NCBI GenBank assembly: GCA_964016885.1
Contig: OZ024743.1
Span: forward strand, 94,860,001 to 94,924,000
DNA: 64,000 nt
From: Eledone cirrhosa
Taxonomy: Eukaryota
Direction: 5' to 3'
Shown: piece after piece, positions 7,797-51,279 of the stretch
Layout of the letters: every line of letters begins with the position of its first letter
Position numbering within the stretch: position 1 is the stretch's first letter
Position numbers and translations under genes: made by a program
The notes under the pieces: model-generated
Told to the model about the DNA's origin: nothing
Database searches by the model: none
The model's input: the letters and a program-made list of their open reading frames with translations, nothing else

Positions 7797-8182
7797 TGCC
7801 CCCAGGTCATCGAGTATGGCCATTGCACGACAAAAAAAATCATAATAATAATAATTGTTTCTACTTTTGGCACAAGGCCAGAAATCATAATAATAATAAT
7901 AATGATAATAATAACAATAACAACAATAATAATGATTTCTTTATTAACCACAAGGGTTTACATAAAGTAGACATTAAGGACAATGCAGGACAATACAGGA
8001 CGGTACAAATGGGCATTTCTGCGTGTAAAAAACAGAAACAGAGGATGTAACAAAAATAACAATGAAAAATTCCCCAATAGGGGGGAGACTTCGGAGGGAC
8101 ATTTGTGGAGAAAGCCCAGTAAAAGGCCACAGTGACCCTGACCACCAAGGCAACTGCCCTCTCCCAGTTTTCCACTTTTAAT

Positions 8183-11100
8183 TTACAGATACGTACTCAG
8201 AGTAGGCCCATTCACTCGGGCCATTCTTGCTTCTCTCAAACATCTTTCAACAAAATGCTAGGAAGAGAGCACTTCCCTCTCTACTCTGATTTTCCTTTTC
8301 AAATGAAATTTGAAAAGTCAATCAGGGCATCACCGAAGAGGTAAGTGCTCGTCTTCAGCACTTTCAAACGTGTCCACCATACTATCTCTTTCGCCATGGC
8401 CACCAGACAGATAAAAACTGCCTGCCCTTCCCGGCTAAAGGAAGAAGGCGGGACAATCCTCACGATGGACTCAGATGATAGCCGGATCCGTCCTACACGC
8501 GACAGCAGGTGTTCGACATAAACCCACAAGTCAGCAATTTTCGGACACTGGACTAGTGCGTGCAGGACGGTTTCGTCGCCCTGCGCGCATCTCGGACATG
8601 CCCGGCTGACGGCACCTCCATGCCTGTAGAGTTTATCCCGAACTGGCAAGGCTCCTCGGTAGCACTGCCAGGCCAGAGATTTCTGGAAGTTGTCCATAGG
8701 TCCCGGCACGAAAGTTCTTCCGAAGAGATTGGCTAGTTGATTTTCGTCGACGCCTAGAGTTTCCCCAAGTACGTCGTAACTCTTCCCCTCCACTAATCTT
8801 CTATAGAACGTCGAGGTGGAGTTTCCACCGATCACATTGCCCGATTGGTCGAGGGCTGTGAGCGCCTGAAGACATTCCAGTCTCCAGGCGCTCCCTCTCG
8901 GTCTTCGCTTGACCCAGGACTGCAGCTCCGTCAAGGAGACGAGCTGGGGAAATACGTGTCGAGTAAACAGCGACCACACCTGATCACCGTCGAGGAAGAG
9001 GTGGAGATGTCGTAGCCTGAGCGCGTGTCTGCGCATCATCAGCCACGGCATTCCCAGCCCTCCACGTAGCGGGTATTGACAGCAGATGGACCGCCTGACC
9101 ATCGGAGCACGTCCCTTCCACAAAAAGCGAAAGAGCAAACGCTCCAGCGCAGTCAGAGGGGGCTTAGGACAAGGTACGACGGTCAGGCGGTAGCAGATGA
9201 CAGACGCGATGTACGCGTTAGCCACCTTCGCTCGACCTTTCAGGGATAGCTTCCTCTCCGCCCATTTCTGGGTGAGAGAAGCCACCCTGCTCGTCACCTC
9301 GTCCCAGTTTTTGTCCGTCTGGAGGTCCGGACCGAACCAGACCCCTAGCAATTTAACCGTCCGACGACGCTGTTGGACGGCATGGACCGGCCTCTCCAGG
9401 TGCCGAGCTGCATGCCCACTGACTTTTCCTGGTTGATCATTGCTCCTGTCACCGCTTCGTATTCTCTTAGTGTAGTGCCGATCGCCTCGATGTGTTTGGC
9501 GTTTGACACCACTACGGCGACATCGTCCGCATATCCTGACACGGATCTTCCGCATCCTAGTTCGCGCGGGACGCCCGTCAACGTCTCCAGTTTGTGCAGT
9601 AATGGCTCGAGAGTCAATACGTACAAGAGGGACGAGAGGGGACATCCTTGGCGGACCGAACGCATGATGTTGAATGGTTCCGAAAGGTGACCGTTCACTC
9701 TCACCACAGAGCAGATGTCGCTGTGCATGGCAGCGATCCAGCCTCTGAAGACGTGCCCAAAGCCAGCCGCCCTCAGGACTGCCGCTAGGTAACGATGGTC
9801 GACCCTATCGAAAGCTTTCGACTGATCTAAATTGATCAAGGACCCACCCGTGCCAGGTTCCCTAGCTACCCTCTCTACGATGTATCGCATGAGGTGGAGG
9901 TTGTCGTGGATGGATCTGTCGGGAATGACGCATGTCTGCGCCTCTCCCACCAGACCACCAACGACAAGCGTCAACCTCTTTGCTAGCACCTTGGCCAAAA
10001 TCTTGAACTCTGTGTTTAGCAGAGTTATGGGCCTGATATTATCTATGTTATCCCCCTTGTTCGGATCCTTTCTCAGCAGTGCCACCGTTCCTCGGCTCAC
10101 AGAGCTGGGAATTCTCCCGTTCTGTTGCCAGTTGCAGTAGACGTCCGCCAAGAGGCCTCCGAACAAGTCTGGCATCTGTACGTAAAGTTCATAGGGCAGA
10201 CCATCCAAACCAGGCGATTTACCCCTTGTGCAGCCAGTCATTGCCTCCCATACTTCAGCGGCTGTTATCGGCTTTTCGCAACACTCCGCCTCAGTGGCCA
10301 AGAGCCGCGGCAGTCCGTCGATGTAGACACTAAAGTCCATCCCTCGACCCGGCCCACCGCTGCCCACGTACAGCTGAGCGAAGTGTCGCTGAAAAGCTTC
10401 ACACATTTTCCCGGGATCGAGTAGCATGCGCCCGTCGTGGTCCACCAAAGACCGGATCGTGGCTTTGTTGCCACGACGCGCCTCCGCCACTCGGGCCCAT
10501 TGAACGGCTTTTGTCCCCTCGTGTCTGAGAGCACGCACCCTAGCTCTGAAAACGCAGCCTTTGTGCTTTGCATTGAAGAATTGGTCAAGGGCCAATTTCG
10601 CCGCAAGCACGTCGGTCGCGATGCCTTTGCTAAGCGCCTCGTCTAATTTTCTAACTAGTTCTCCCTCTGCTCTATTTTTCTCTATTGCTAAAGCCTTACT
10701 AAACCTAATGGATTCTATTCTAATCGCTCTTTTCAGAGCAAACCACCATTTGTTGTTGTCAAACCACCATTTGTTGTTGTCAACGCTCGCTTAACTAGTT
10801 CGCTAATCGGGTCTCTGTAGGCCTTGCGCGCTGGTAAGGACGCGTTTAGCTTCCAGTAGCCGGGTCCTCGTCTATGAAGCCTATCTAAATCAAGCACACA
10901 TATCACGATTTTGTGGTCCGTGTAGCTGACTATCTTGAATTGTGGACAGCCTATGCTAGACCTATCTATTTCCCTACAAAATACTCTATCTAGATATGAT
11001 CTGGATGACGCTATACGATTTGTCCAAGTCCACATTGGCACATTCTGGAAATCCAATCGGTTCCTGTCAGACAGTTCAAAAAGCCTGAACAGGTTGGTGA

Positions 11101-11593
11101 GGCTCTTGCACCCTCCTCCCCTATCCGCTAATCCCACACAGTCCCAGCGTGCATCTAAGATCCCGTTCCAGTCGCCCACTAACACTAAAGAGCGGGACGT
11201 TCCAAGAAAGGTCTCCAGACGTTGGAAGAAATCAGGCCGCCCTGCTCCTGTCGGGGCATAGACGGCCACTAGCCTGAAAGCTTGCCCGTCTCCGCTGGTC
11301 ACGTCCAGCACCACCAACTTACCCTCTGGGTCCAGGAAGATGACCCGTATGGCGAGATCCAAACCTTTCCGAAAAAGCACAGCAATGTTTGCCCCCGATC
11401 CAGGACGGCTGGGAGATGCGTACACATCGTAGCCGCCGAAGATCGGTGCGAAGTCCCGTGCTTCGGAGATTCTGGTCTCGCTGATGGCCACTACATCTAT
11501 GTTTAGTGACCTGAGGTCGTTGAGCAGGTGACCCTGCTTCCCTGACGACCCCAAGTCACGCGCATTTATGCTGCCTATTCTGAGTGAGGTCAT
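8183..11593 (-). pseudogene. Tx1 ORF2 (APE endonuclease, RT, CCHC), frameshifted
   Basis: IGSINAR, AISETR, AVYAPT, VGDWN, SYLDRVF, TDHK; KSPGLDGLPYE, RPITLLNTEFKI, LDQSKAFDRVDH, VRQGCPLS, YADD; CPRC..ETVLHALVQC. Confidence 0.95.
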
Positions 11594-11626
11594 GTTTAAA
11601 ATAGAGTGGAAAAGATGGGAAAGACC

Positions 11627-11632
11627 ACTTAC
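11627..11632 (-). promoter_or_regulatory. Candidate 5' splice site (GTAAGT) overlapping the ORF1 stop
   Basis: CG|GTAAGT, 33 nt upstream of ORF2 ATG; conserved at 17615, 28131, 49775. Confidence 0.55.
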
Positions 11633-13738
11633 CGTAATTTTCGTAGAGGAAAGATGGTTTCTCCATCCCTTTTCACTTGATCGTCTGGTGAAGGGACCGT
11701 TGAATCGTCCCTTCGGCTGGTCGTCGGCACTTCTATGAGTATGTCGGAATATACTCTCCGGTTGAGAGTCCCTCCTAGGTCTCTGAAATCACCAACTGCT
11801 TTGGGGAATTTCGTTTTAATATTTGTGTATTGTTTCTGTGCTATTTTTAGCAGTATTACGTTAGTTGGCGTTTTGATTGGTGCTGGTATTATGTAGTCGT
11901 GCTGTGAAATATCTGTGTGTTCAATTATGTAAGTCATTAGTTTCTTGTTGTGTGTATTTATTGCCGTGCATTTGTTTTTCAGGGGGTGGGGTATGGTTCT
12001 GCTATTTTCTTGTCGTTGTTGCTGGGTGTGTGTGTTTTGTTGTTGTGTTTGCGATGTTGGTGCTTGTGGTGGTGGTGTTGAAGGTGTTGTTGTTGTTGGC
12101 GGTGGGGTTGTCGCCGGTGGTGATGGTGTTGGTGGTGTTGCTGCTGTGAGTCTCTTTGCAGTAGCCTTTACCCTTTTTTCATTTCTTTCCTCCCTTTTCG
12201 AAGGCGACGATGCGCTGCTTCTGCGTTTGTGCCTTCTTACGACCTTTTTCCATCCCTCTCCCACCTCACACTCCATGTCTGATTCTGTGAGGTCGGGGAG
12301 GGGTACCAGCTCCACTCTTTCACTTGTTGTTGTTGTTGATGTTTGCACTGGTGTCTCTGTTGCAGCTGCATTTGGTATTGCTGTTGTTGTTGTTAATACT
12401 TCCACTGCTGCTGCTGTTTTTGATTTCCGTGGCGTGGGTATGGGTGCCACGGACCTATCGTTCCGGGTTGGCGCTTGTCCTGTTGCTGGTAGCTGTGGAG
12501 CCGGTTTCGGAAGGAGGGGGGGTCTCCTTTCTCAGGGTCTTCTCGTTGCAGAAGGCCCTGAGGTGAGTCTTCGATCCACAGCGAAAGCATTTCGGGCGTT
12601 TGCCCTCAACACTTATAGGCAGTTGAGTGCCGTTATCGAAGTCTATCACATCCGGGATAGCTTCGATGCACTCCTGGTTGGTTTGGATTAACATCTCAAT
12701 GGAGGTGCCAACCCAATCTTCTCTTACTTTTTTTCTGTACTTGCAGTAAAGTTGTTTTGTCCTCGATTCCGACGAGGACAGACGCGGCCAGCCAAGAAGG
12801 GGCCATCCCGGGGGGGACGTGGGTCAGTTTGACCCTCACAATTTTTTGCCCGCAGTAGGGGGCACGAACACCATTTCCTCGCTCCTTAGCGTCACAAAGA
12901 TTGAGCCTTTGCCTCCTGGGGTGTGGCAAAAAGCACGTCTACGGTGGCATATTTCTTGCCTCGGGTGATGTGCGTTTTCCGCTGCCACACAGACCCTAAG
13001 GCTTTTTGTATTTGAGCCTCTGTGGCTCTTTCAACCCTACGGGATTTTGTGCTTACTGTACGGTACGTGACCGTACAGTGCTGTTGGGTTTCGAAAAATT
13101 TTTCGGCTGCCTTGCAGATTGCTCGGTGTCCGGTTTTTGTCACCATCTTCTTCGTTTCCTCTAATTCCTCATTTGTTATGAGGATGGTTTCCAGGTTCTT
13201 TGCGATACCTGCAAACGAGATTGGTTTTTCTTTGCTGCTGTTGTTGTTGTTGTTGTCGTCAGAGCTGCTGTTACTTTTGTTGTTGCTGCAGGTACTACGA
13301 CCACTGCCGCCGCCGCTGTTGCTGTGGTTGCTGTTGTTTATGCTGCTGCTGCTGTTGCTGTTGCTGCTAATGCTGTTGTTGTTTATGCTGCTGCTGATGC
13401 TGTTGCGGCTGCTACTGTTGTTTTCCTTGTCACTGTTGCTGGTGCTGCTGTTATTACGGCTGCTACTGCTATTTTTCCTGACGTCAGACGAATGAAATGG
13501 GTTTTCGTATTTCCCGCACACCTTTTTCGTCGTTGTCGTCGTCGTCGTGGAGAAATCTTGCACGCTTTGCACGTGATTTTTCTTTTCTGGCGTCGCTTGC
13601 GAAAGAGAAGGGGGGGAGGAGAGACACATTTAGAGAAGGGAGGGAGAGAGACAATATTCTCTCTGCTGTAGTGACGATTGAGGAAGAAGAAGACGGAATG
13701 AATGGGAGTGACCTATGAAAATTCTTTTTCGTAGCCAT
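11629..13738 (-). pseudogene. Tx1 ORF1 (gag-like, single CCHC knuckle), frameshifted
   Basis: KRPKCFRCGSKTHLRAFC; Ser/Asn- and Thr/Pro-rich tracts; upstream of ORF2. Confidence 0.85.
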
Positions 13739-14244
13739 GTTTTTTTTTTTGTTTAAAATAAATATTGGGCACAAAACCTCAATAAGCTGTTATTTAACCC
13801 CGAAGGGCCAAATAACGGGCAGATAGGCCCCTCTCACGAGGAGGAGGGTGTTTTTGTCTACAATTTGGTTAAAGTTTTAAACAATTTACAATTGTTATAG
13901 CGGTCAAAATTTACAATACCTTACAGAGCCGAGCCTCCGTCAACCATAGCATTCAACAATAATAATAATAATGATTTCATTTATTGGCCACAAGGGCCGG
14001 CATATAGGGGACAATACAAAAGACTGGGACAATGGGGTTTTACAGAAAAATCGAGTAAACAATATGAATAAACAAAGTAACAATAACAAAGTAACAATCA
14101 AGTAACAAGAAAATTACAAGAAAACATTCCCCAATAGGAGGGATGACAACCTAGGGTTCGCTGAGGTACCCCACTAGTCCTGAACGACCCGACGCTTCGA
14201 GAGAACCCTGGAAGAGCACCCCTCTCCTCTTCAAATTTACCTAC

Positions 14245-17200
14245 CTACAGCCGCATGACCAGAGTAGGCCCACTCACACTGGCCATTCTCGCCAAATTCA
14301 CCCACCTTTCAGCAAATGTACTGGGGGGAAGCACTTCTCTCTCCATCCTCACCTTCCTTTCCAAGTGAAACTTGAAAAAGTTGATGAGGGATTGGCCGAA
14401 GAGAAAAGTGTCTGTCTTCAGTCCTTTCAACCTCGTCCACCATACAAGCTCTTTCGCTACAGCCACCAGACAGAGGAAAATTGCCTGCCCTTCCTGGCCA
14501 AAAGAAGGCGGTCGATCATCACTATGGACTCGGCCGATAGTCTGATCCGTTCTACACGCAACAACAGCTGTTCAACATAACTCCACAAGTCAGTAATGCA
14601 CGGACACTGGACGAGTGCGTGCAGAACTGTTTCGTCGCTCTGCGCGCATCTCGGGCAGGTCCGTCTGACAGCACTTCCGTGCCTGTAGAGTTTATCTCGA
14701 ACCGGCAGTGCTCCCCGGTAGCACTCCAAGCGAGGGATTTTTGGAAATTATCCATCGTCCCCGACTCCAAAGTCCTCCGGTACAGACTGGTTAGTTCGAC
14801 TTCGTTGACTCCCAGAGCCTCTCCGAGTGCGTTGTCGCACTTGTCCACCACTAATCCTCTATAGAATTCGAGAGTGGAAGTTCCACTGACCGCATTGCCC
14901 AACTGATAGAGGGCAGTGAGTGCCTGGCAACATTCCAGATGCCAGTCACCCAGTCTCGGTCTCTTCTTGACCCAGGACTGCAGTTCAGTCAAAGAAACGA
15001 GCTGCGGAAAGGCCCGTCTGACAAACGGCGACCACACCTGTTCACCGTTTAGGCAGAATATCTGGAGATGCCGCAGCCTTAGCGCGTGCCTGCGCATCAT
15101 TAGCCACGGCATGCCCATCCCTCCACGTAGAGGGTGCTGGCAGCAGATGGACCGCCTCACCAGCGGAACCTGACCCCTCCACAAGAATTTGAAGAGGAGC
15201 CGCTCCAAAATGGCGAGGGGCGAACGGGGGCAAGGGACGACGGTCAGACGGTAGTAGGTGACGGACGCGATGTACGCGTTCGCCACCTCCGCCCGACCTT
15301 TCAGTGATAGCTTCATCCCAGCTTATTTCTGGGTGAGACTGGCTACCCTGCCCGTCACCTCGTCCCAATTTTTATCCACCTGGAGGTCTGGCCCGAAACA
15401 AACCCCTAGCAACTTTACCGGTCCGTCCGTCCAGCGCCTAACGACGCTGTTGGACGGCATGGACTTGCCTCTCCAGGTGCCGAGTTGCAAGCCCACCGAC
15501 TTTTCCGGGTTAAGTTTTGCTCCCGTCAACCTTTCATATTCCTCCAATAAGTTGCCGACCACCTCGATTTCTGAGGTGTCCGACACCATCACGGTGATGT
15601 CGTCCGCATAAGCCGACACAGCCTTTCCGCGTCCCGGTTCGAGCGGGATGCCCTGCAACAGCTCCAGCTTCCGCAGTAAAGGCTCGAGAGTCAATACGTA
15701 CAGAAGGGAGGAGAGAGGGCACCCTTGACGGACCTGAAACGGTTCCGAGACGTCGCCATTAATTTTTTACCATCGAGCAGGTGCCGCTGTGCATTGCAGC
15801 GATCCAGCTTCTGAAGACGGGGCCGAAGCCAGCCGCCTTGAGGACAGCCTCCAGGTACCGATGGTCGACCCTATCAAATGCTTTCGATTGATCGAAATTG
15901 ATCAGAGCCCCACCGAAGCCAGGTTTACACCCTACACTCTCTATGATGTATCGCATTAGGTAGAGGTTGTCGTCGGGGACCTGGTTGGGATTGCGCAAGT
16001 TTGCGCCTCCCCAACCAAATCCCCGACGACAAGCAACAACCTTTTCGCTAATACCCTGGCCAAAATCTTAAACTCTGTGTTGAGAAAAGTTATGGGCCTG
16101 AAATTGTCTAATGTGTCCCTCTTGTTCTCGTCTTTCCTTATCAGCGTCACTACGCCCCGGCTCACAGAACTGAGAATACTCCCGTTTTGCTGCCAATTGC
16201 AGTAGAGGGCTTCGAGGAGATTGGAGAACAAGTCTGGCATATTTACGTAAAGCTCGTAGAGCAGACCATCCAAACCGGGTGACTTGCGCCTCATGCAGCC
16301 GACAAGGGCATCCTGAATCTCGGCTGAAGTAATTGGTCTTTCGCAGCGCCCAGCGTCAGCCGTCGAGAGTTGCGGCAAGCCATCGAGGTAGGGGCTGAAG
16401 TCCGCCACCATCTCTGACTCGCCACTTCCCCCGAACAACCGAGCAAAATGTTGGCGAAAGGCCTCACACATCCTCTTGGAATCGCTCAGCTCGTGCCCGT
16501 CTCGGTCCGTCAAAGACCGAATCGTGGTTTTATTACCAAGCTGCGCCTCTGCCACCTTCGTGTTTCGCATTGAAGAAATGGTCTAATGCCATTCTCGCCA
16601 CTAGCCCGTCAGTTGCAATGCCACTACCAATAGCCCCGTCTAACTTATCTACCAATTCCCCTCCTTTCTATTTTTCTCTAACGCTACTTCTTTGCTAAAC
16701 TCTATCGACATTACTTCATCTCTCTTTTGAGAGCCCCCCACCATCTATTGTTGACGACTCCCCCTGTCAACTTTTTCTTAACTAAATTGTTGACCTGGTC
16801 CCTGTAAGCCTTACGAGCCTGAAATGACATGTTTAGCTTCCAGTAACCAGGTCCTAGCCTACGCGTCTTATCTAGGTCGACCATATAGATCACAAACTTG
16901 TGATCTGAATAGGCGACCGTTTCAAAACGTGGACAGCTTACACTATTTCTGTCTATTTTCCTAATGAATATCCTGTCTATATACGATCTAGATGACCCTA
17001 TGCGGTTAGCCCAGGTCCACACTGGCGTATTAGGGAAATCTAGTCGGTAACTGTCAGACAGTTGGAACTGGCTGATCAGGTTCTTGAGGCTTTTGCACCC
17101 CCTGCTCCTTTCGGACTCTCCCACACAGTCCCAGCGTGCGTCTAAGATGCCGTTCCAGTCCCCCGCTAACAGTAAAGGGCGAGACGTACCCAGAAAGGCT

Positions 17201-17581: not shown

Positions 17582-17614
17582 GTTGGCAGGTTAAAAAGAG
17601 AGAGAGGAAGGTTT

Positions 17615-17620
17615 ACTTAC
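17615..17620 (-). promoter_or_regulatory. Candidate 5' splice site (AAG|GTAAGT)
   Basis: 33 nt upstream of ORF2 ATG at 17581. Confidence 0.55.
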
Positions 17621-17645
17621 CTTCCGGGCTCTTGTGAAGGTCGGG

Positions 17646-19322
17646 TTATTCGACCTCCATAGTTGGTGGGGTTTCTTTTGGGAACCCCTTTAAAAGTCTT
17701 GAAGTGGGTTTTACGTTCGCGGTTCCCACGTCCCGAGGAAAGCTGTCTCGTATTTCTTTGAATATATCGAGCGACATTCGCACCAGAACCAAATCTTCCG
17801 GCACGCGAAATGTGCTCGATTTAAAAATGTCCCCCTCTTTTTGTATATTTTCACTTCGTGCTACGAGGGCCATCAGTTCCTTGTTGGCCCACATGACCAG
17901 CACGAAGTTTTGTATGTTTTGTTGGTGTGATTTTATTTGTTTGCGTGTTGTGGTGGTGATGGTTTTCGTGGTGGTGTTTCGGTTCTATCTGTGTTTGTTG
18001 TGAGTGCGGTGTCTGTGGTTTCAGATGTTTGTGTGTATATTTTTTTCTTGCGTCTGTTTAGGTTGTTTGCGTTTGGGGGATTCTGGTGATGGTGATGGTG
18101 GTGTTGATGTTGGTGTTATTGGAGAGATGTTTGCGTGGGTGGTATCTGCGTTTTTTATTGTGGGTGATTTTGTGCTTTGTTGAGTTTTTTTTTTCTTTTT
18201 GTGTTTCCTTTTTTGTATTTTGGGGGATTTGGGTTTTCCCTCATCTTCACTACTGGTAGATGAGGGTTCTGTGTCTGTAAGTGTGTCTGTATGTATGTTT
18301 ATGATTTTATTGGTGTGTGTATTTTTTGGGGGTAGGGGGGGGGATATGACAGCTTTCCTCGTTTCCCCCCTGGGTGGTCAATGTTGGTGGTGGTCTTTCT
18401 ATTGGTGTTGTTGTTGGTGGTTTTGCCGGTGCTGGTGTTGGTTGTTGTCCTCGCCCCGGCGTCTGCAGCAGTGGAACCTTTCGACCCCTTGTCTCTTTCA
18501 GCAGTTGAGGGCAGAAGACTCGCAAATGGGTTTTTTCCCCACAAACAAAACACTGCGGCCTTTTGCCTACGGTCATAATGTGAATGACCGTCCCATTCTG
18601 AAGGCGGATGTGGTCCGGGATTGTCTTCACATTCTCGGGCCTGATCTGGAGAAGGATCTCCAGGTCAACCCCGGACCAGTCCTCTCTGGCCGTTCTGGTC
18701 ACTTCTATAGGGACGGTATCCGTCTCCTCCACAATCACACATCCCAGAAGCCACCACATGTCAAGTCCTGGTTGGATTCTGGGAATGCGGAGACGGGCCG
18801 TTCTTTTTCCCATGTGGGAGGGGTACATTATGACCTTGATGGTTTTGCAAGGAGACATAGCGTGTTTCATAGCGAGGGCTTTTGACTTGAACAACACCGA
18901 AATGGTGCCGTACTGTCTGCCCCTCTCTATGTATTCGGTGTCTTCTCTGATGCAGCTCAGCGCGATTTCGACATCTTCTTGTGGGATTAAAGCTGCCTTT
19001 TTGGTTTGTGCTGAGATGTATCTAAAATGCACCGTTCTGCGCTCCACTGCCTCAATAGCTTCTTCCGGGACAGTTAAGTTGGCCCAGGTTTGCTCTTGCT
19101 TGATGAGCTTCTATGCCTGGGCATGTTGAAGCATGGCCTCTTTTTTGCTGCTGCCTCAGCGAAAGTGTTCTTGTTTTCGTTGGGTGTGTTGTTGTCGTTG
19201 TCGTTGTTCTTGTTGGTGTTGTTGTTACCACTGTCGCTGTTATCATTGTTGTCTTTGTTGCCACCGTTGTTCTCGGTGCAGTTGGTATTGTTGCTGTTGG
19301 TGTTGTCGCTATTTGTTTTCAT
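17646..19322 (-). pseudogene. Tx1 ORF1, disrupted
   Basis: KRPQCFVCGEKTHLRVFC knuckle; TFAEAA motif; Asn-rich N-terminus. Confidence 0.8.
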
Positions 19323-24538: not shown

Positions 24539-24769
24539 TTTCTTTATTAACCACAAGGGTTCACATAAAGTAGACATTAAGGACAGTGCAGGACAATACA
24601 GGACGGTACAAATGGGCATTTCTGCGTGTAAAAAAAGCCTAGAGGATTTAATAAAAAATAACAATGAAAAATTCCCCAATAGGGGGGAGACTTCCGAGGG
24701 ACATTTGTGGAGAAAGCCCATTAAAAGGCCACAGTGACCCTGACCACCAGGGCAAGTGCCCTCTCCCAG

Positions 24770-27700: not shown

Positions 27701-28098
27701 GTCCTAGCGTGCATCTAAGATCCCGTTCCAGTCGCCCACTAACACTAAAAAGCGGAACCGGGCATAGACGGCTACTAGCCTGAAAGCTATCCCTTCTCCG
27801 CTGGTCACGTCCAGCACCAATAACTTACCTTCTGGGTCCAGGAAGATGGTCCGTATGGCGAGATCCAAACCTCTCCGAAAAAGCACAGCAACTCCTCCCC
27901 CGATCCCGGACGGCTGGGAGATGCGTACACATCGTAGTCGCCGAAGATCGGTGCGAAGGCCCGTGCTTCGGAGATTCTAGTCTCGCTGATGACCACTACA
28001 TCTTTGTTTAGTGACCTGAGGGCGTTGAGCAGGTGGCCCTGCTTCCCTGACGACCCCAAGCCACGCGCATTTATGCTGCCTATTCTTAGTGAGACCAT
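24770..28098 (-). pseudogene. Tx1 ORF2, disrupted
   Basis: APE, RT (SAYADD) and C-terminal motifs across several frames. Confidence 0.92.
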
Positions 28099-28132
28099 GT
28101 TGAAATGGAGTGGAAAAGATGGGAAAGACCAC

Positions 28133-30287
28133 TTACCTTACTTCTCGTAGAGGAAGGATGGTTTCTCCATCCCTCTTCACTTGATCGTCTGGTGAAGGGA
28201 CCGTTGAATCGTCCCTTCGGCTGGTCGTCGGCTCTTCTGTGAGTATTTCCGAATTTACTCTCCGGTTGAGTGTCCCTCCTAGGTCTCTGAAATCACCAAC
28301 TGCGTTAGGGATTTTCGTGTTAATGTTTGTGTATTGTTTCTGTGCTATTCTTACCAGTCTTATGTTCGTTGGTGTTTTGATTGGTGCTGGTATTATGTCG
28401 TCGTGCTTTGAAATGTCTGCGTGTTCAATTATGTAAATCATTAGTTTCTTGTTGTGTGTATTTATTGCCGTGCATTTGTTTTTCTGGGTGTGGGGTGTGG
28501 TTCTGCTATTTTCTTGTCGTTGTTGCTGGGTGTGTGTGTTTTGTTGTTGTGTTTGCGATGTTGGTGCTTGCGGTGGTGGTGTTGAAGGTGTTGTTGTTGT
28601 TGGCGGTGGGGTTGCCGCCGGTGGTGATGGTGGTGCTAGTGTGGGTGGTGATGGTTTTTGGTGGTGTTGCTGCTGTAAGTCTCTTTGCAGTAGCCTTTAC
28701 CCTTTTTTCATTTCTTTCCTCCCTTTTCGAAGGCGGCGATGCGCTGCTTCTGCGTTTGTGCCTTCTTGCGACCTTTTGCCATCCCTCTCCCACCTCACAC
28801 TCCATGTCCGATTCTGTGAGGTCGGGGAGGGGTACCAGCTCCACTCTTTCACTTGTTCTTGTTGGTGATGGCTGCAGTGGAGTCTCTGTTGTAGCTGCAG
28901 TTGGTATTACTGTTGTTGTTGTTAATGCCTCCACTACTGCTGCTGTTCTTGATTTCCGTGGCGTGGGCATGGGTGCCACGGACCTATCCTTCGTGCTTGC
29001 CGCCTGTCCTATTGCTGGTAGCAGTGGAGCCGGTTTCGGAAGGAGGGGTTTTCTCCTTTCTCAGGGTCTTCTCATTGCAGAAGACCTTGAGGTGAGTCTT
29101 CGACCCACAGCGAAAGCATTTCGGGCGTTTGCCCTCAACACTTATGGGCAGTTGAGTGCCGTTATCGAAGTCTATCACATCCGGGATAGCTTCGATGCAC
29201 TCCTGGTTGGTTTGGATTAAGATCTCAATGGAGGTGCCGACCCAATCTTCTCGTACTTTTTTCTGTACTTGCAGTACATTTGTTTTGTCCTCGATTCCGA
29301 CGAGGACAGACGCGGCCAGCCAAGAAGGGGCCATCCCGGGAGGGGGGGGGACGACGACGACGGACGTGGGTCAGTTTGACTCTCACAATTTTTTGCCCGC
29401 AGTAGGAGGGCACCAACACCATTTCCTCGCTCCTTAGGTCACTAAGGATTGAGCCTTTACTTCCTGGGGTGTGGCAAAAAGCACGTCCACGGTGGCATAT
29501 TTCTTGCCTCGGGTGATATGCGTTTTCCACTGCCACACAGACCCTAAGGCTTTTTGTATTTGAGCCTCTGTGGCTCTTTCAACCCTACGGGATTTTGTGC
29601 TTATTGTACGGTACGTGACTGTACAGTGCTGTTGGGTTTCGAAACATTTTTCGGCTGCTTGCAGATTGCTCGGTGTCCGGTTTTCGTCACCTTCTTCTTT
29701 GCTTCCTGTAATTCCCCATTTGTTATAAGGATGGTTTCCAGGTTCTTTGCGATACTTACAAACGAGATTGGTTTTTCTTTCTTGTTGTTGTTGTCGTCAG
29801 AGCTGCTGTTACTTTTGTTGTTGCTGCTGGTATTACGACCGCCACCGCCGCTGTTGCTGTGGTTGTTGTTGTTGTTGCTGCTGCTGCTGTTGCTGTGGTT
29901 GTTGTTGTTGTTGCTGCTGCTGTTGTTGTTTATGCTGCTCTGATGTTGTTGCGGCTGCTACTAGTCTTTTCCTTTTCACTGTTGCTGCTGTTATTACTGC
30001 TGCTGCTGCTATTCTTCATGACGTCAGACGAATGAATGGCTTTCCGTGTTTACCGCACACATCGTCGTCGTCGTGGAGAAATGTTCCACGTTATGCACGT
30101 GCTCTTGGTGAAAGCTATCAGAAACTATATTTTTCTTTTTCTTTAATGGCGTCACTTGCGAAAGAGGCGACACCGCATTTAGAGAAGGGAGGGAGAGAGA
30201 CAATCTTCTCTCTGATGTAGTGACGATTGAGGAAGAAGAAGACGGAATGAGTGGGAGTAACTTGTGAAAATTCTTTTTTGTAGCCAT
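28133..30287 (-). pseudogene. Tx1 ORF1, disrupted
   Basis: KRPKCFRCGSKTHLKVFC; AAG|GTAAGT at 28131-28136 overlaps the stop. Confidence 0.85.
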
Positions 30288-30571: not shown

Positions 30572-32545
30572 TTCTTTATTGGCCACAAGGGCTGACATCA
30601 AAAAAGCATTACAGACGGCACAGGGCGGTACAGGACGGTACGATGTGGGTTTTGTGCGTGTAAATATTTTTATTATTTATATAAGAAAAGAAAAAAAAAG
30701 GACAGAAACATATATATATATAAACAATAAAAATGAAAATTGAAACAATGAAAAATTCCCCAATAGGGTGGAAACCTCCGAGGGTTATTCGTGGCGAAAA
30801 CCACACAAAAGACCACGGCCACCCTGACCACCAGGGCAAGCGCCCTCTCTCAATTTTTCCATTTCTCAAACTACAGACGTATATTAAGAGCTGTCCCGTT
30901 CACTCGGACCATTCTCGCTACATTCACCCACCTTTCAACAAACTTGCTAGAAGGCAGCACTTGCCTCTCCACCCTGATTTTCCTCTTCAAGTGAAACTTG
31001 AAAAAGTTAATTAGAGATTCGCTGAAGAGGAAAGTGTCTGTCTTTAACCTTTTCAACCTTGTCTACCACACAATCTCTTTCGCCATGGCGACCAGGCAGA
31101 TGAAAACCGCCCGCCCTTCCTCCTCGAAGAAAGACGGCGAGACCATCTGCACAATGGACTCAGTCGATAACCGGATCAGTCCTACACGCGACAGCAACTG
31201 TTCGACATAGCTCCACAAGTCAGCAATGCTCGGGCACTGAACGAGTGCGTGCACGACGGTTTCGTCGATCTGCGCGCATCTCGAACAGGCTCGGCTGACG
31301 GCACTTCCGTGCCTGTAGAGCTTATCTCGAACCGGCAGCGCTCCCCGGTAGCACTGCCAGGCCAGGGATTTTTTTGAAGTTATCCATAGGCCCTGGGTTG
31401 AAAGTTCTCCGGAAGAGAGCAAACAGCTGATCTTCTTCGACGCCCAGGATCTCTCTGAGAACGTCGTCGCTCTTCCCCTCCACTAGTCCTCTATAGAACG
31501 CCGAGGTGGATGTTCTACCGATACTGGTTCCCAGCTGGCAGAGGGCAGTGAGCGCCTGGAGACATTCCAGTTTCCAAGCGCTAGCCCTCGGTCTTTTTCT
31601 GACCCAGGACTGCAGCTCCGTCAAGGAGACGAGCTGTGGGAAAACGTGCCTGGCGAACGGCAACCACACCTGTTCACTGTCAAGGAAGCACCAGAGATGT
31701 CGCAGCCTCAGCGCATGTTTGCAATCATCAACCATGACATGCCCAGTCCTCCACGCAACGGGTATTGACAGCAGATGGATCGTCTGACCATGGGAGCGCG
31801 TCCCTTCCATAAAAAGCGGAAGAGGAGGCGCTCCATTTTGGTTAGAGTTGGGCCGGAGCAAGGGACGACGGTGAGGCGGTAGCAGATGACGGATGCGATG
31901 TACGCTTTCGCCACCTCCGCCCGGCCTTTCAGGGACAGCTTCCTCTCGGCCCATTTCTGGGTGAGGGAAGCCACCTTGCTCGTCACCTCGTTCCAGTTTT
32001 TCTCCATCTGGAGGTCCGGTCCGAACCAGACCTCGAGCAATTTAACCGGTCCGTCCGTCCCACGCCCCACGACGCTGTCGGACGGCATGGACTTTCCTCT
32101 CCAGGTGCCGAGCTACAAGCCCACCGGCTTTTCCTGGTTTATCGTTGCTCCTGTCACCGCTTCGTATTCCTTGAGAGCGGTGCCGAGCATCTGGACGTGT
32201 CTGGTGCTCGACACCACCACGGTGACCTCGTCGGCGTAAGCCGACTCGGATTTCCCGCATCCTAGTTCGCGTGGGACGCCCCTCATCGCGCCCAGTTTGC
32301 GAGAGGGGACAACGCTGGCGTCCTGAGCGCATAATGCTGAACGGCTGCGACAGGTGACCTTTCACCCTCACAACTGAGCAGATGTCGGTGTACATCGCTG
32401 CGATCCAACCCCTGAAAACGGGCCCGAAACCGGCTGCCTCGAGGCAGGTACCGATGGTCGACCCTATCGAATGCTTTGGATTGATCCAAGTTGATCAGGA
32501 CCCCATCCGTGCCAGTTTCCTTAACCACCCTCTCTATGATGTATC
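30571..32545 (-). mobile_element. 5'-truncated Tx1-clade LINE (family related to family 1)
   Basis: LDQSKAFDRVDH, YADE, ORF2 C-terminus, 3' end CCTTGTGGCCAATAAAGAAA in (AAT)n. Confidence 0.9.
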
Positions 32546-33510
32546 TACTTGCAATGATAGTCGATGTGGCACATGTCAGTTCATACATACTGATCAATAT
32601 ATGAATACAAAAACTGCAAAAATATTCCAAAAAATGAAAATATGAACTGCAAAAGCAGAAATCTAATTTACTGCATTAAATACCCGAATTGTGAAGAACT
32701 ATGTCGGTCAAACTGGAAATGCACTATTGGAACGTGCACGGGTGTACGGACAGCAAATCAGAGACCCAAATGTCCGTCAGATATCCCTGAGTAACCATCT
32801 AGCAACATGTGGTCAGAAAATATTTATAATATTTCCATCTACAAACTACACAGCCCAAGTGAAATCAAGAGAAAAATTAAAGAAAAGAATTTTATTGATA
32901 AATTCCAACCCAAGCTAAATGAACAATAATAATGCATAGGGGTATTACTTCTACTATGACTACGCCTACGACCATGTCGATTACCACCACTAACAAAAAC
33001 AACAACAATAATAATAATAAAAGTGATGTTGATGTTGATGATTACTGAAGGTTTTTTTATAAAAACCCTAGAAAATGCTATTTCATCATTTCTAAAAATA
33101 GCAAAACAATTGATACTTTGGATAGGGTCAAATAGAAGTCGTCAGACATACTTAACCAACCGTGACGCCTAAACCAATCAGCTTTAGTAATCTAGTGAAA
33201 CCACACACCTATTGGTCGAAATAAAGTTTGCAAAATTTAGCATTCTGTAGCCCCTTTTTACTGTATATAAGGCACAGATTTTAGCCATCTTATTACAGTT
33301 GAAAATTGCAAACTTGACTGTCACCACTGAATATGAACCTGAAGATTGCGAAAGCATGAAAGTACTTGTTCAATTAACACTTAACATTTAATATTCTACC
33401 ATACTATTTCATTATAATATTATAATTTTAAAGAATTGTAAATAAAGCGAGTAAATCAGACAAAGTTGGAATTCCTTTTATTAATATAATCATACACAAT
33501 CATACACACC
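32546..33510 (+). mobile_element. PLE 3' fragment (Neptune-like GIY-YIG remnant + 3' region)
   Basis: CNDSRCGTC linker, NCKSRNLIYCI, YVGQTGNALLERARVY..QIRDP..LSNHLATC; hammerhead downstream. Confidence 0.8.
33334..33372 (+). ncRNA. Minimal hammerhead motif
   Basis: TGAAC-CTGAAGA-TTGC GAAA GCAT-GAAA-GTAC-TT-GTTCA. Confidence 0.75.
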
Positions 33511-46027: not shown

Positions 46028-46310
46028 GATAGATAGATAGATAGATAGGTTTCTTTTATTTGCCACTAGGGCATCAAAAGTGGGACAAGTACAAAGGGGG
46101 AGTTTACACAAAAAGGCGTCCTCAATAAGGAGGAGGCAATAACAAAATATAAAAATAAAATAAGATATAACAAAAAATAAAATTTTTAACAAAATCCTCA
46201 ACAGAGAGGAGGCGCCTTGGGGGGTCGCACACACCCCCGAAAAAAGTGTGCAACCCTTCTCCTCAGGAGCACAGAGAAGGGGTGCTCCCTTGGTCTTTCA
46301 TCTTCCTCAC

Positions 46311-49300
46311 CTATAGTCTGATGTAGAGTGAAGGCCCATTCACACGGGCCATTCTCGCCACTTTCACCCATCTTTCATAGAAACGGCTGGGGTGCAGCAC
46401 CTCTCTCTCCATCCTGATCCTTCTTCCGAAATGATAACGGAAGAAACGGACCAGTTGTTGGCCAGAGAGAAAGGTGCCTGACCTCAGTCCTTTCAGACGC
46501 GTCCACCATACAACCTCTTTCGCCATGGCTATTACGCACAGAAACACCGCCTCTGCTTCATCTTTGAAGGGGGGAGGCGGCTTGATCATTACAATAGACT
46601 CGGTGGTCAACCGGATCGGTCCCACCCTTGACAGCAGTTGTTCGACATAGCCCCACAGATCGGCTACGCCCGAGCAGTGTACCAATGCGTGTGCAACGGT
46701 TTCCTCGTCGCACACGCATCTGGGACAGATCTTTTTGGCGGGGTCCCTACCCGGGCGCCCGTGTCTGTAGAGCCTTTCTCTCTCGAACGGGTAAAGCCCC
46801 TCGGTAGCACTGCCAGGCCAGGGACTTCTGGAAGTTGTCCATAGGTCCCGGGCTGAATGTCCTACCGAACAGGCTGGCCAGTTCGTCCTCCTCCATGTCT
46901 AGGGCTTCTCCGAGGGCGTCGTCGCACCTGCTGCGTACCAGCCCTCTATAGAATGTTGCGGTGGAGTCTCCACTGATAACCGGATCCGCCTGCCAGAGGG
47001 CGGTGAGCGCCTGGGCACACTCAGTGTGCCAGGCGCCCAGTTTTCTCGGTCTTTGCTTGACCCAGGATTGCAGCTCGGTGAGTGAGACGAGTCTGGGAAA
47101 GGTTCGTCTCACAAACGAGGCCCACACCGGTTGTCCGGTGAGGAATGCGTAGAGGTGCCGTAGCCTTAATGCGTGTTTACGCATCATTAGCCACGGCATC
47201 CCCAGCCCTCCTTTCGAAGGGTGTTGACAGCAGATGGATCTCCTCACCATAGGAGCCCGCCTCTTCCAAAGGAATTGGAAGAGCGCGCGCTCCATCTTGG
47301 TGAGGGTTTCCCTTGGGCAGGGCACTACGGTCAGGCGGTAGTAGATGACGGACGCTATGTAGGTGTTCGCCACCTCCGCCCGACCTTTCAGGGATAGTTT
47401 GCAACTGGCCCACTTCTGGGTCAGTGCAAACACCCTGTTCGTAACCTCCGCCCAGTTTTTCTCCACCTGGAGGTCCGGTCCGAACCAGACCCCGAGCAAC
47501 TTCACCGGGCCCTCCGTCCAGCGTCCGACGACGCCATCGGAGGGCATCGGTCTGCCCCTCCACGTGCCGAGTTGCAAACCGATCGACTTGTCCCGGTTCA
47601 GCTTAGCCCCTGTGAACTTTTCGTACTCCTCCAGTAAGGTGCCGACCGCCTCGATTTCGGAGGCCGTCGACACCATTACTGTCACGTCATCGGCGTAGGC
47701 CGACACCGCTTTCCGCAATCCCGGTTCCAAAGGGATGCCCTGCAACAACTCCAACTTCCGCAGTAGTGGCTCGAGAGTCAACACATACAGAAGGGAGGAG
47801 AGAGGGCACCCTTGTCGGATGGACCGCGCGATTTTGAACGGCTCCGAGAGGTAGCCGTTCACCTTGACCCTAGAGCAGATGCGGCTGCTGTGCATAGCAG
47901 TGATCCAGCCCCTGAATACGGGTCCAAAGCCTGCCGCCGCTAGCACCGCATCCAGGTAACCATGGTCGACCCTATCGAACGGCTTAGATTGATCCAAGTT
48001 GATCAGAGCCCCACCAAAGCCGGGTTCGTTCCCAACCCTCTCTATGATGTATCGCATGAGGTGGAGGTTGTCATGGATGGACCTGGACGGGATAGCGCAT
48101 GTCTGCGCATCTCCCACCAGGTTGCCCACGACAAGCGCCAACCTCTTTGCTAGCACCTTGGCCAAAATCTGTAACTCTGTATTTAGCAGAGTTATGGGCC
48201 TGAAGTTACTTATTTCGTCCCCCTTGTTCTCGTCCTTCCTCACTAGCGTGACTACGCCCTTGGTCACAGTACAGGGAATTCTCCCGTTCTGTTGCCAGTT
48301 GCAGTAGACCGCCTCGAGGAGATCGGGGAACAAGTCCGGCATAGCTAGATATAATTCGTAAGGAAGACCATCGAGACCCGGGGATTTGCGTTTGCCGCAT
48401 TGGCTCAGCACGTCCTCTATCTCAGCGGCCGAAATCGGCTCCTCGCAGGACTTCGCCTCCCTGTCCGAGAGGCGCGGCAGGCCGTCGAGGTATGGACCGA
48501 AGTCCACGTTCCCAACCGGCTCCCCGCCCTTCCCGAACAGTCGGGCAAAGTGCCTTTGAAAGGCCTCACACATCTGCTTAGGCTCAAGAATCGCCCGTCC
48601 ATCCAGGTCTCGCAAAGACCGGATGGTGGATTTAGTTCCACTGTTGGCCTCTGTCACGCGGGCCCAGCTAACAGCTTTGGTCCCCTCGTTCCCTAGAGCA
48701 CGTATTTTACTTCGGACAACGCAGCCTTCGTGCTTCGCGTCAAAAAACTGGCTCAAAGCCGTTCTCGACGCTAGCACTCTGGCCACGTCGCCGCTTCTAA
48801 TTGCCTCTTCTACTCTATCTATTAGCTCCCTTTCCTTCCTATTCCTATCCGCAGCTAGAACCTTACTAAATTCTATCGAGACTACTCTAATCTCTCTCTT
48901 TAGAGATACCCACCACCTGCTGTTGACGATCGCTCCAGTCAACCGTTCCTTAACTAACGTACTAATCCGATTCCTGTAGGCTCTACTTGCCGGCAAGGAC
49001 AAGTTGAGCTTCCAGTAACCGGAGCCCTGTCTATGAGTTCTGTCAAGGTTGACCATGCAGGTCACTAATTTGTGGTCTGAATAGCCAACCATGCGCATTT
49101 TTGGACAACTTAAAAAGTCCTTATCCTTAATTCTAACTAAGAACCTATCTAGGTACGACCTAGATGATCCGCTACGATTTGCCCAAGTCCAGGTTGGCGC
49201 AGTCGGAAAATCTAGTCGATATCTATCGGCCAGGTCAAATCGACCGATTAACCCTTTGAGGCTATTACACCCCTCTCTGTCGGGGCAGGCCCCTACGTAG

Positions 49301-49752
49301 TCCCAGCGTGCATCTAGGATACCATTCCAGTCCCCCACTAATAGCAAGGAGCGGGACGTCCCTAGAAAAGTCTCCAGACGATGGAAGAAGTCCGGCCGCA
49401 TTGACCCGAAAGGGCCGTAGGCGGCTACCAACCTAAACGCTCCGCCTTTACTACTGCCAAGGTCCAGAACCACTAGTCGACCCTCCGGGTCCAAATGTAC
49501 CATCTGTGTTGCGAGACCCAGATGTTTTTGCAGCAGAACGACAACTCCACCCCCACCTCCGGGCTGACAGAGAGATGCGTGCATCTCAAAGTCATCAAAG
49601 GTGGGGGCCAGCTGTCGCACGTTGCTGATCCGGGCCTCGCAAATAACCATCACATCTATACGTTGTGACCTGAGGTCATTTAGAAGCATTGCTTGCTTCC
49701 AAGTTGAGCCCAGGCCACGCGCATTTAAACAGCCTACTCTTAGCATAGCCAT
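46311..49752 (-). CDS. Tx1 ORF2 (APE-RT-CCHC); open for ~1000 codons, frameshifted near 46780
   Basis: ORF track 46747-49776 + 46311-46715; all APE and RT motifs present; likely start is the ATG at 49752. Confidence 0.92.
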
Positions 49753-49776
49753 GTTGGTGGTGAAGAGAAAAGGCAC

Positions 49777-50856
49777 TTACCTCTCTGCGTCCCGGGTATC
49801 GGGCTGCACAATTTCCATTAGGGTGGGGGATGGGTTGTTGGGTGGGGTGGTGGTTTGTGGAAGTGTGGGGGCATCAGTGTGTTGTGTGGTTGGGGAGCTT
49901 GGAGTTGTGTGGGTGTTTGGGGAGGGGGTGGGATAGTTTTTTAGGAGGACGCGGTTAATGGGCCCGACGCAGGGGGGACCCACGTCCTCTTTAAAATTGT
50001 TTTTTAAAGTTTTATAGGTGTCCTGTGGGGCCTTAATCATTTTGAGGTGGGGGAAATCCCCTGCCTGGGTGAAGTTAGGCCCTTGTGATTTTATTAGATT
50101 GTTGTTGTACACAATGTTTAACAGTTTTTTGTTTCTTGTATTTATGTATGTGTATGCATGTTTTTGTTTTTGTGTGGTGTTTTTTGTTTGCTGTTGTTGT
50201 GAGCTCTTTTGTGTTGGTGTCAGTGTTATGTTTTGGGGAGGGTTTTTTTTCATTTGTGTGTCTGAGGTGTGTTTTCTTTTTTTTCTTTTGATTGTGTGGA
50301 AGTGCTCCTCCTCGTCTGACGACGAACTAGGGTCATCTTCCGCGTTGGAGGGGAGGGGTATATTTTCGGGTTGTGTTTGCGGTACGGGTGTTTTGGAAAT
50401 TGTTTTTGTTTTTTGAGTGGAGGGGATGGGTTGGACATTGTTTTGTTTTGGTTTGAGCTGTGGTGGTTGTTTTTGTAGTGGTAGTTGTGGTGATTGTGTT
50501 GGTTGTGCAGTTGTTGGTGGTGTAGGCAGAATTGGGGTTTTCTTATTAAGTTGGGGACAGACAGCCCTCAGGTGACCTCTGGTTCCGCAGAGGTAACACG
50601 AGGGCCGTCTACCCTCAACGGTAATGTTGATGAAGGTTAGATCATCCAGTATGACGCGTTCAGGGATCTGGGCGATCCTTTCGGGCCTCATTTGAACTAC
50701 AAGTTCGAGGCTCGTTCCACTGAACGCGTCACCCGATGCCTTTCCCATGGACACCAGCATGTCATCCTCCAGGTCCAGAAAACCTGTCAAAACCCACCAT
50801 ATGTCCATAATCGGCAGGATGGTGTGGATTTTTATTTTTTGTGTTCTTCTACCCAT
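49777..50856 (-). CDS. Tx1 ORF1 C-terminal two-thirds
   Basis: RRPSCYLCGTRGHLRAVC knuckle; GAG|GTAAGT at 49775-49780 overlaps the stop. Confidence 0.85.
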   Translation of the reverse strand: MGRRTQKIKIHTILPIMDIWWVLTGFLDLEDDMLVSMGKASGDAFSGTSLELVVQMRPERIAQIPERVILDDLTFINITVEGRRPSCYLCGTRGHLRAVCPQLNKKTPILPTPPTTAQPTQSPQLPLQKQPPQLKPKQNNVQPIPSTQKTKTISKTPVPQTQPENIPLPSNAEDDPSSSSDEEEHFHTIKRKKRKHTSDTQMKKNPPQNITLTPTQKSSQQQQTKNTTQKQKHAYTYINTRNKKLLNIVYNNNLIKSQGPNFTQAGDFPHLKMIKAPQDTYKTLKNNFKEDVGPPCVGPINRVLLKNYPTPSPNTHTTPSSPTTQHTDAPTLPQTTTPPNNPSPTLMEIVQPDTRDAER

Positions 50857-50911
50857 GTACGTAGGGTAGAAGGTGTATGCGGTGGATGTGATAGATAGAT
50901 AGATATGCGTT

Positions 50912-50989: not shown

Positions 50990-51279
50990 TTTCTTTATTA
51001 GCCACAGGGGCACAAAAGAAGGGGACAAATACAAAGGGGGAAGTTTACATACAATAAAAACGTGTAAAATGTTATCACAGATGGAATTTAAAAGTTAGTC
51101 GATTTTCCCCAATAGAGGGAGACAGTTTATATGGGTAACACATACCCCCGAAAAAATGTGCAACCCTCATCTCCAGGAGTACGAAGAGCTTGTACTCCTT
51201 TCCTCTCCTCCTCCTTTTCCTCAATCTACAGGCTGATATAGAGAGAAGGCCCATTCACTCGGGCCATTCTCGCCACTTT
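50990..51279 (-). mobile_element. Short 3'-end Tx1 insertion in (GATA)n
   Basis: KVARMARVNGPSLYISL* + 3' UTR; GATA flanks. Confidence 0.85.

Follow-up and report, generated by a model that had tools for sequence, protein, structure and literature searches.

LINE copies in the window

The window, a stretch of 64,000 nucleotides from Eledone cirrhosa (contig OZ024743.1, positions 94,860,001 to 94,924,000), contains several non-LTR retrotransposons (LINEs), four of which retain the junction between their two open reading frames, ORF1 and ORF2. All four lie on the minus strand and carry G/GTAAGT at this junction, a 5′ splice site (donor) sequence in which the slash marks where an intron would start (Table 1). 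The sites had been pointed out in a sequence-only reading of this DNA, and their positions, including the preceding G, are confirmed. The same is true for the distances from donor to ORF2 ATG (33, 33, 32 and 22 nt in the copies at 11.6, 17.6, 28.1 and 49.7 kb) and for the use of the TAA within GTAAGT as the ORF1 stop in three of the four copies. Other details had to be adjusted. The 11.6 kb copy reads CG/GT at the donor and not AG/GT. The ORF1 ends, described as otherwise unalignable between families, are not entirely so, as the 49.7 and 17.6 kb families share M-E-[IV]-x-x-P-D, and the spacer before ORF2 is free of AG in the window and contains AG in 4 of the 18 families considered below. The 11.6 and 28.1 kb copies belong to the same family (B), so that the window holds three families, A, B and C. 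GGTARGT occurs 16 times in the window on both strands together, which gives a chance of about 0.4% per 30-nt span. As the window copies are related by descent, the real test of the motif lies in synonymous sites, reading frames and a distant lineage.

Table 1. Features of the LINE copies in the window.
Feature	Position	Strand	Remarks
Junction donor GTAAGT, family B copy 1	11627..11632	-	TAA inside is the ORF1 stop; phase 2
Pyrimidine-rich spacer (33 nt) before ORF2 ATG (11591-11593)	11594..11626	-	Family B copy 1
Family B element, full span	7940..13950	-	Broken by frameshifts; AATAAA and (ATT)n at end
Family B 3′UTR acceptor candidate	8019..8030	-	U-rich tract, GCAG; putative acceptor
Second GTAAGT, within family B ORF2 coding sequence	11317..11322, also 27823-27828	-	Not in family A
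Junction donor GTAAGT, family C copy	17615..17620	-	Phase 1; ORF1 stop from +6
Family C ORF2 end	14245..14277	-	CTGTAG then GTAGGT; weak acceptor candidate, donor-like too
Junction donor GTAAGT, family B copy 2	28131..28136	-	Phase 2
Family B copy 2, 3′UTR acceptor candidate	24622..24633	-	
Junction donor GTAAGT, family A copy	49775..49780	-	Phase 2
Family A ORF2 as far as frameshift	46750..49752	-	APE endonuclease and RT (PF03372, PF00078)
Family A ORF2 end	46311..46343	-	Pyrimidine tract, CTATAG, purine-rich run; weak acceptor candidate, predicted hairpin
Family A ORF1, 5′-truncated	49780..50890	-	Weak zinc knuckle; preceded by (TATC)n tract

Other 5′-truncated copies, which have lost the junction, are present at window:19680-21117 (H/C-like fragment), 30871-32546 (B2) and 51226-51260 (J). 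In most families ORF1 closes with M-[ED]-[IVT]-x-x-P, which follows a low-complexity stretch and precedes the donor by a few residues (window:49778-49820, 17612-17660). This ending, which is possibly a short binding motif, is missing from the B-group families.

Classification and general properties of the elements

The elements have the organization of L1-group non-LTR retrotransposons. ORF2 encodes an N-terminal APE endonuclease followed by a reverse transcriptase (RT), and among solved sequences human L1 ORF2 comes closest (E 4.5e-48, residues 8-857). It is preceded by a separate ORF1 of 580-698 aa with a zinc knuckle, for which zf-CCHC matches were found in three of five ORF1s, below the curated cut-off, and 5′-truncated copies occur. 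By inspection, complete ends adjoin (TATC)n, (ATT)n, (TCTG)n or satellite, a Tx1-like target preference. The target is (ATT)n in families B, C and H, (TATC)n in A, E, F, G, J and K, (TCTG)n in A3 and a satellite of about 55-60 bp in D. The putative Tx1 label agrees with this layout and with the use of simple repeats as targets; the tree described below holds no labelled Tx1 reference. Copies also form head-to-tail arrays with a period of ~5.8 kb and target repeats in between (window:7900-30600; L190-L193; L201-L202). In this 3.0 Gb genome, the elements are a large and active group, with families that include hundreds of near-identical intact copies. The 150 best matches to the first 80 residues of family A are all 100% identical, from which it follows that family A is very young. 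One of its intact copies, L033, has an ORF1 of 594 aa and an ORF2 of 1145 aa.

A number of further observations concern the element ends and single families. Close to the apparent 5′ end, at a distance of ~5-20 nt, there is an RGACRY word (L033, L108, L110, L112, L202, L090), which we take to resemble a downstream promoter element; transcription may start in the flanking repeat. A terminal CCYYGTG...AATAAA is common to the families of this genome and to lineages with 40-41% ORF2 identity (window:7940-7956, 46055-46071; L292, L346), and is a candidate RT recognition or 3′-end signal. In L204 and L210 an A2-type 5′UTR is joined to a family A junction, which suggests exchange of 5′UTR/ORF1 between families. 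In family F (L101-L106, L059, L063, L072), ORF2 starts with ATA and not ATG in every copy read, overlapping the ORF1 TAG, while ORF1 is intact in L102 and L105. This arrangement suggests AUG-independent initiation of ORF2, or frameshifting. A distinct RT-like ORF of 468 aa adjoins the intact family A element (L033:1-1400, minus strand). Rfam gave no match among 8 loci, and no relatives were found among viral contigs.

Conservation of the junction donor

To determine how widely the donor occurs, ORF2 starts were located with an endonuclease-start pattern that is blind to the donor, and GGTARGT was sought 30-60 nt upstream. It was present at 10,316 of the 11,582 starts, and at none in a reversed control. 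Conservation across families, which the sequence-only reading had proposed as a check, is thus strong. In representatives of the 18 families, G-1, T+2 and T+6 are invariant and +3/+4 are always purines (A/G). G+1 and G+5 are kept in 17 of the 18, the exceptions being single degenerate copies of K and B4. By column counts and pairing rank, this consensus of the AG/GTRAGT type, complementary to U1, is that of a U2-type 5′ splice site. The junction GT is the best or joint-best for U1 pairing in 10 of 13 representatives and the second in the other three; in the intact family A copy L033 it ranks first among 281 GTs.

The donor is also present outside these families. In the sister lineage S, of which ORF2 is 41% identical to that of family A, AG/GTAAGT follows the ORF1 stop by a single base and precedes the ORF2 ATG by 13 nt. 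It was found in 63 of 64 contexts, a count in which overlapping loci enter some copies twice. Lineage P (L346, L348), with 40% identity to family A, has no junction donor, but a donor is present 40 nt after ORF2, followed by a strong acceptor. The families of this genome form one clade with S and P (SH-aLRT 100), apart from the plant L1 rows, and on this tree, built by a quick method, the junction donor needs two changes. It is absent from 16 metagenome loci at 27-35% identity, several of them near-duplicates, and from L349. Judged by these comparisons, the junction donor is lineage-specific and not general to L1/Tx1. Lineage S was found as tandem arrays in a bacterial genome assembly, of which many contigs (L290-L348, L352) consist of intact LINEs of animal type, arranged head to tail; most likely, these represent contamination by host DNA in a species-representative genome.

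One explanation for such a motif would be neutral inheritance combined with the constraint of the stop codon. The families are related, with 58-97% ORF2 identity, and the stop lies inside the motif in 12 of the 18. Against this, four-fold synonymous sites are only 43-58% identical between the deepest families, and among those shared by 11 intact families just 13 of 66 are invariant. Moreover, the GT is found in three phases relative to ORF1 (12 families have it in phase 2, five in phase 1 and one in phase 0), with at least four changes along the tree during which the motif was retained. The motif overlaps TAA, TAG or TGA, and in the 41% lineage it lies downstream of the stop. Neutral inheritance is therefore largely refuted and very improbable. 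As the motif persists in three phases, with all three stops, next to variable four-fold sites and in the 41% lineage, it is, on the sequence comparisons made here, a selected RNA signal and not a by-product of the stop codon.

Acceptor candidates and ORF2 as a possible optional intron

A donor at the end of ORF1 raises the possibility, put forward in the earlier reading, that ORF2 is a regulated intron. In its full form, this model holds that ORF2 is an optional intron of 3.4-3.7 kb and that the main role of the donor is to allow its removal, giving a short ORF1-only mRNA. The acceptor would be at the ORF2 stop codon in most families and in the 3′UTR in family B and the distant lineage, while unspliced RNA would be used for the production of ORF2p and as the template for copying. 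A LINE lineage would then use its whole ORF2 as an optional spliceosomal intron, copy the unspliced RNA only, and have kept this plan across hosts in which the ORF2 proteins are 41% identical. We consider this possible, at appreciably less than even odds.

Acceptors were scored with a heuristic, using approximate weights from general knowledge and not trained on the host. The AG at the ORF2 stop is in the top 4 of ~260 AGs in nine of the 18 families, and in the representatives of three more (B, Bb and B4) the first-ranked AG is the one in the 3′UTR. Hence, a good acceptor is available in 12 families, at two different places. In A, B2, C, C2, H and K, the AG at the ORF2 end has only ranks 7-28; A and H are very young. 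In family B, ORF2 no longer stops with TAG and the 3′UTR AG is present, while its sister B2 keeps the TAG and is without the 3′UTR AG, a swap that speaks for an acceptor function. The same is suggested by lineage S, in which a second donor lies 14-20 nt past the ORF2 end and is followed, ~240-260 nt on, by a strong acceptor with a pyrimidine tract, canonical in form, in 77 of 77 contexts. Nevertheless, no single acceptor is conserved across families. In addition, the pyrimidine tract at the ORF2 end encodes P-S-L-Y-I-S-L, and predicted structures pair it with the purine run that follows the stop (unpaired probability 0.11-0.40), with a hairpin z-score beyond -2 in one of the 18 families; both points weigh against the intron model. 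Canonical-looking 3′UTR introns are present in S and P (L292:6469-6750, L346:6460-6650), with the acceptor 140-260 nt on, and are retained in all copies read.

The reading frame offers another view on the same question. Joining the donor to the AG of the stop codon brings the ORF1 frame to an end within 1 codon in 9 of 16 families and within 3 codons in 10 (permutation p 0.08 and 0.05, phylogeny ignored; B and Bb, which end in TAA, are excluded), a limited match that counts against the intron model. When the first AG of the tract is taken, it stops within 3 codons in 16 of the 18 (permutation p 0.014), in support of the model, with a rule chosen post hoc and a p-value that ignores phylogeny. 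General background here is the 50-nt rule of nonsense-mediated decay (NMD). The covariation between donor phase and stop looked strong in 13 families and proved marginal on testing; a blind prediction of the donor phase from the 3′ end was right for one of three new families (J1) and wrong for two (J2 and K). Altogether, the acceptor and frame evidence for splicing is suggestive, not decisive.

Search for spliced copies

If ORF1-only RNA were retrotransposed, copies precisely lacking ORF2 from the GT onward would be expected, and a search for these had been proposed as well. None were found in the families searched, which were those other than B2, G, J and K, for joins other than those of family C starting with GTAG and those of A2, A3 and A4 to an upstream AG. 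In family A, all four exceptional copies are unspliced, against 876 normal unspliced copies. Further sets of exceptions likewise yielded no spliced copy (10 of 10, 5 of 5, 47 of 47, 1 of 1 and 6 of 6 read, and 30 read of another 77). None of 54 listed exceptions, 30 of which were read, starts with the AA of the family B acceptor. The exceptions are explained by point changes, small indels, microhomology deletions, inversions or unrelated sequence, and 41 internal deletions inspected by eye include none with GT..AG borders. A search among ORF1 homologues for spliced C-termini gave no match. These results count against the intron model. They weaken it and do not refute it, since ORF1-only RNA would need trans-mobilization and cis preference could hide such retrocopies.

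Among the matches listed for contigs of five runs, of a kind not on record, no joint falls at the donor; 223 further joints lie outside these. In run X4, again of a kind not on record, the end of one contig coincides with the last exonic base (L033:5219), and this contig overlaps the unspliced one by 30 nt. This is at most a weak hint in favor of the intron model, a lead for splicing from one study.

A much shorter intron of 42-53 nt, from the junction GT to an AG in ORF2 codon 5, would fuse ORF1 and ORF2 in frame. The AG would keep the ORF2 frame in the phase-2 families. The phase-1 and phase-0 families, on the other hand, have no matching acceptor, and the distant lineage has just 13 nt to the ATG. 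Moreover, a fused RNA would copy itself in cis, and yet no fused copy was found in the sets of exceptions searched. This fusion, the least probable of the explanations considered, was rejected for its missing acceptors in phases 1 and 0 and the missing fused copies.

Proposed U1 binding to mostly unspliced RNA

The reading that is tentatively preferred, with a probability of about 0.45, is that the donor serves to bind U1 on RNA that mostly stays unspliced. The conserved 5′ splice-site sequence that ends ORF1 would recruit U1 snRNP onto an intron-less bicistronic LINE RNA, where bound U1 would help transcription to run through ORF2 and suppress premature cleavage and polyadenylation. Some splicing, at a low level or in specific tissues, may take place alongside, as in the retrotransposon EVD, with an acceptor located at the ORF2 stop or beyond it. 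We infer all three elements of this reading: the occupancy by U1, its effect on elongation or 3′-end choice, and the rarity of splicing. With regard to the earlier interpretation, U1-type pairing stands as the best description of the motif and U1 binding without splicing is a slightly better fit than ORF2 as a regulated intron.

Several observations are in line with U1 binding. The donor is present at most ORF2 starts, with variation limited to A/G at +3/+4 in intact families, it was kept through the phase changes and in the 41% lineage, and it is the first or second U1-pairing GT in 13 of 13 representatives. No exception read is a spliced retrocopy, and one third of the families, among them the very young A and H, have no good acceptor. 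Besides the junction, other non-coding parts of the elements contain donors. Of the 12 families whose 5′ end is complete, 10 have GTRRGY in the first 130 nt, in the 5′UTR, where shuffled sequences lead one to expect 2.5, and relatives have a donor after ORF2. In the A group, the AG ~67 nt downstream of the 5′UTR donor is not conserved, and seven of seven family A-type copies that are without it retain the donor, none of them spliced. A true 5′UTR intron is not supported, as the AG varies and no spliced copy was seen. The non-coding slots of the elements are thus occupied by donors without a fixed partner.

Other observations fit less well. AATAAA/ATTAAA is scarce downstream in ORF2 (0-2 per element); it is found within 500 nt upstream of the donor in 11 of 13 representatives, in an ORF1 that is itself A-rich. 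Family B and the distant lineages have strong acceptors, to which a donor this strong should sometimes splice. The junction donor is missing from lineage P and the 5′UTR donor from B and B2. Finally, according to the available text of PMC5860796, a conserved donor in human L1 was attributed to a RUNX3 site, i.e., to a function at the DNA level.

This last precedent also favors a role that does not involve U1 at all, in which the motif would be a protein-binding or rRNA-pairing signal for translational re-initiation from ORF1 to ORF2, or a DNA promoter element. It agrees with the position of the motif, which always precedes the ORF2 start by 13-52 nt and is never more than 36 nt away from the ORF1 stop. 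Such a role is unlikely, as the spacer (19-46 nt), the frame of ORF2 relative to ORF1 (all three occur) and the phase of the motif all vary, the variation of the motif itself tracks the splice-donor consensus, and the motif recurs in 5′UTRs and after ORF2, where no re-initiation follows.

Comparison with known systems

U1 telescripting and the occlusion of a poly(A) site by the major donor of HIV-1 are cases in which a donor acts via U1 without splicing. The principle proposed for the elements described here would be the same, by analogy, i.e., a donor that works through U1 binding. We know of no case of this type in a LINE.

The closest parallel is offered by EVD, a Ty1/Copia element of Arabidopsis. 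In the available text of PMC5580714, U1 at the EVD donor has two effects: it makes possible an RNA for the structural protein only (shGAG), and it keeps the full-length RNA from terminating prematurely, a precedent for U1 binding in the LINEs. In both, a U1-type donor is conserved close to where the structural gene ends. EVD, however, has LTRs and a single gag-pol ORF, and RNA data show its short intron at the protease and its premature termination, whereas the LINEs are bicistronic non-LTR elements in which any intron would comprise all of ORF2. Of a Copia-like donor-acceptor pair, the donor is conserved, and a good acceptor is present in 12 of the 18 families, at two different places.

Human L1 is an L1-group LINE as well, with a long-conserved donor that, as far as the available text of PMC5860796 goes, is rarely used. 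Splicing from this 5′UTR donor gives SpIREs, in which the 5′UTR or ORF1 is removed; spliced retrocopies make up ~2% of full-length insertions (PMC5860796). Splicing of another type, SpORF2, is found in the available text of PMC2896524. In contrast to human L1, of which the spliced retrocopies keep ORF2, the donor described here ends ORF1, the candidate intron is ORF2 itself and no retrocopy was found. Within the Tx1 clade, the microsatellite-targeting Kibi and Koshi resemble the present elements in their two ORFs, APE and RT, animal host and simple-repeat insertion. The targets differ, and the available text of PMC4494074 describes no Tx1 splice signals. A repeat annotation of octopus from 2026 contains 13 recently active L1-Tx1 families, and "splic" does not occur in its main text as available (PMC13282606). 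A full-text search, with most subscription papers and Repbase Reports outside its range, gave no ORF1-end donor and no ORF2 as intron in a LINE, in agreement with the earlier statement that none was known for Tx1. The conserved donor at the end of ORF1 is real, selected and, for a LINE, apparently undescribed.

Significance

The success of a LINE is thought to require full-length, unspliced RNA. For human L1, splicing is described as a dead end in the available text of PMC5860796. Donors that are selected in the non-coding slots of such elements would mean either that intron-less retroelements borrow U1 for their long transcripts, or that a LINE sets its ratio of ORF1p to ORF2p by splicing. 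The latter, if true, would mean that a non-LTR element follows a strategy like that of retroviruses and Copia elements. The more than 10,000 strong donors present in one genome could also disturb host splicing when they are located inside introns.
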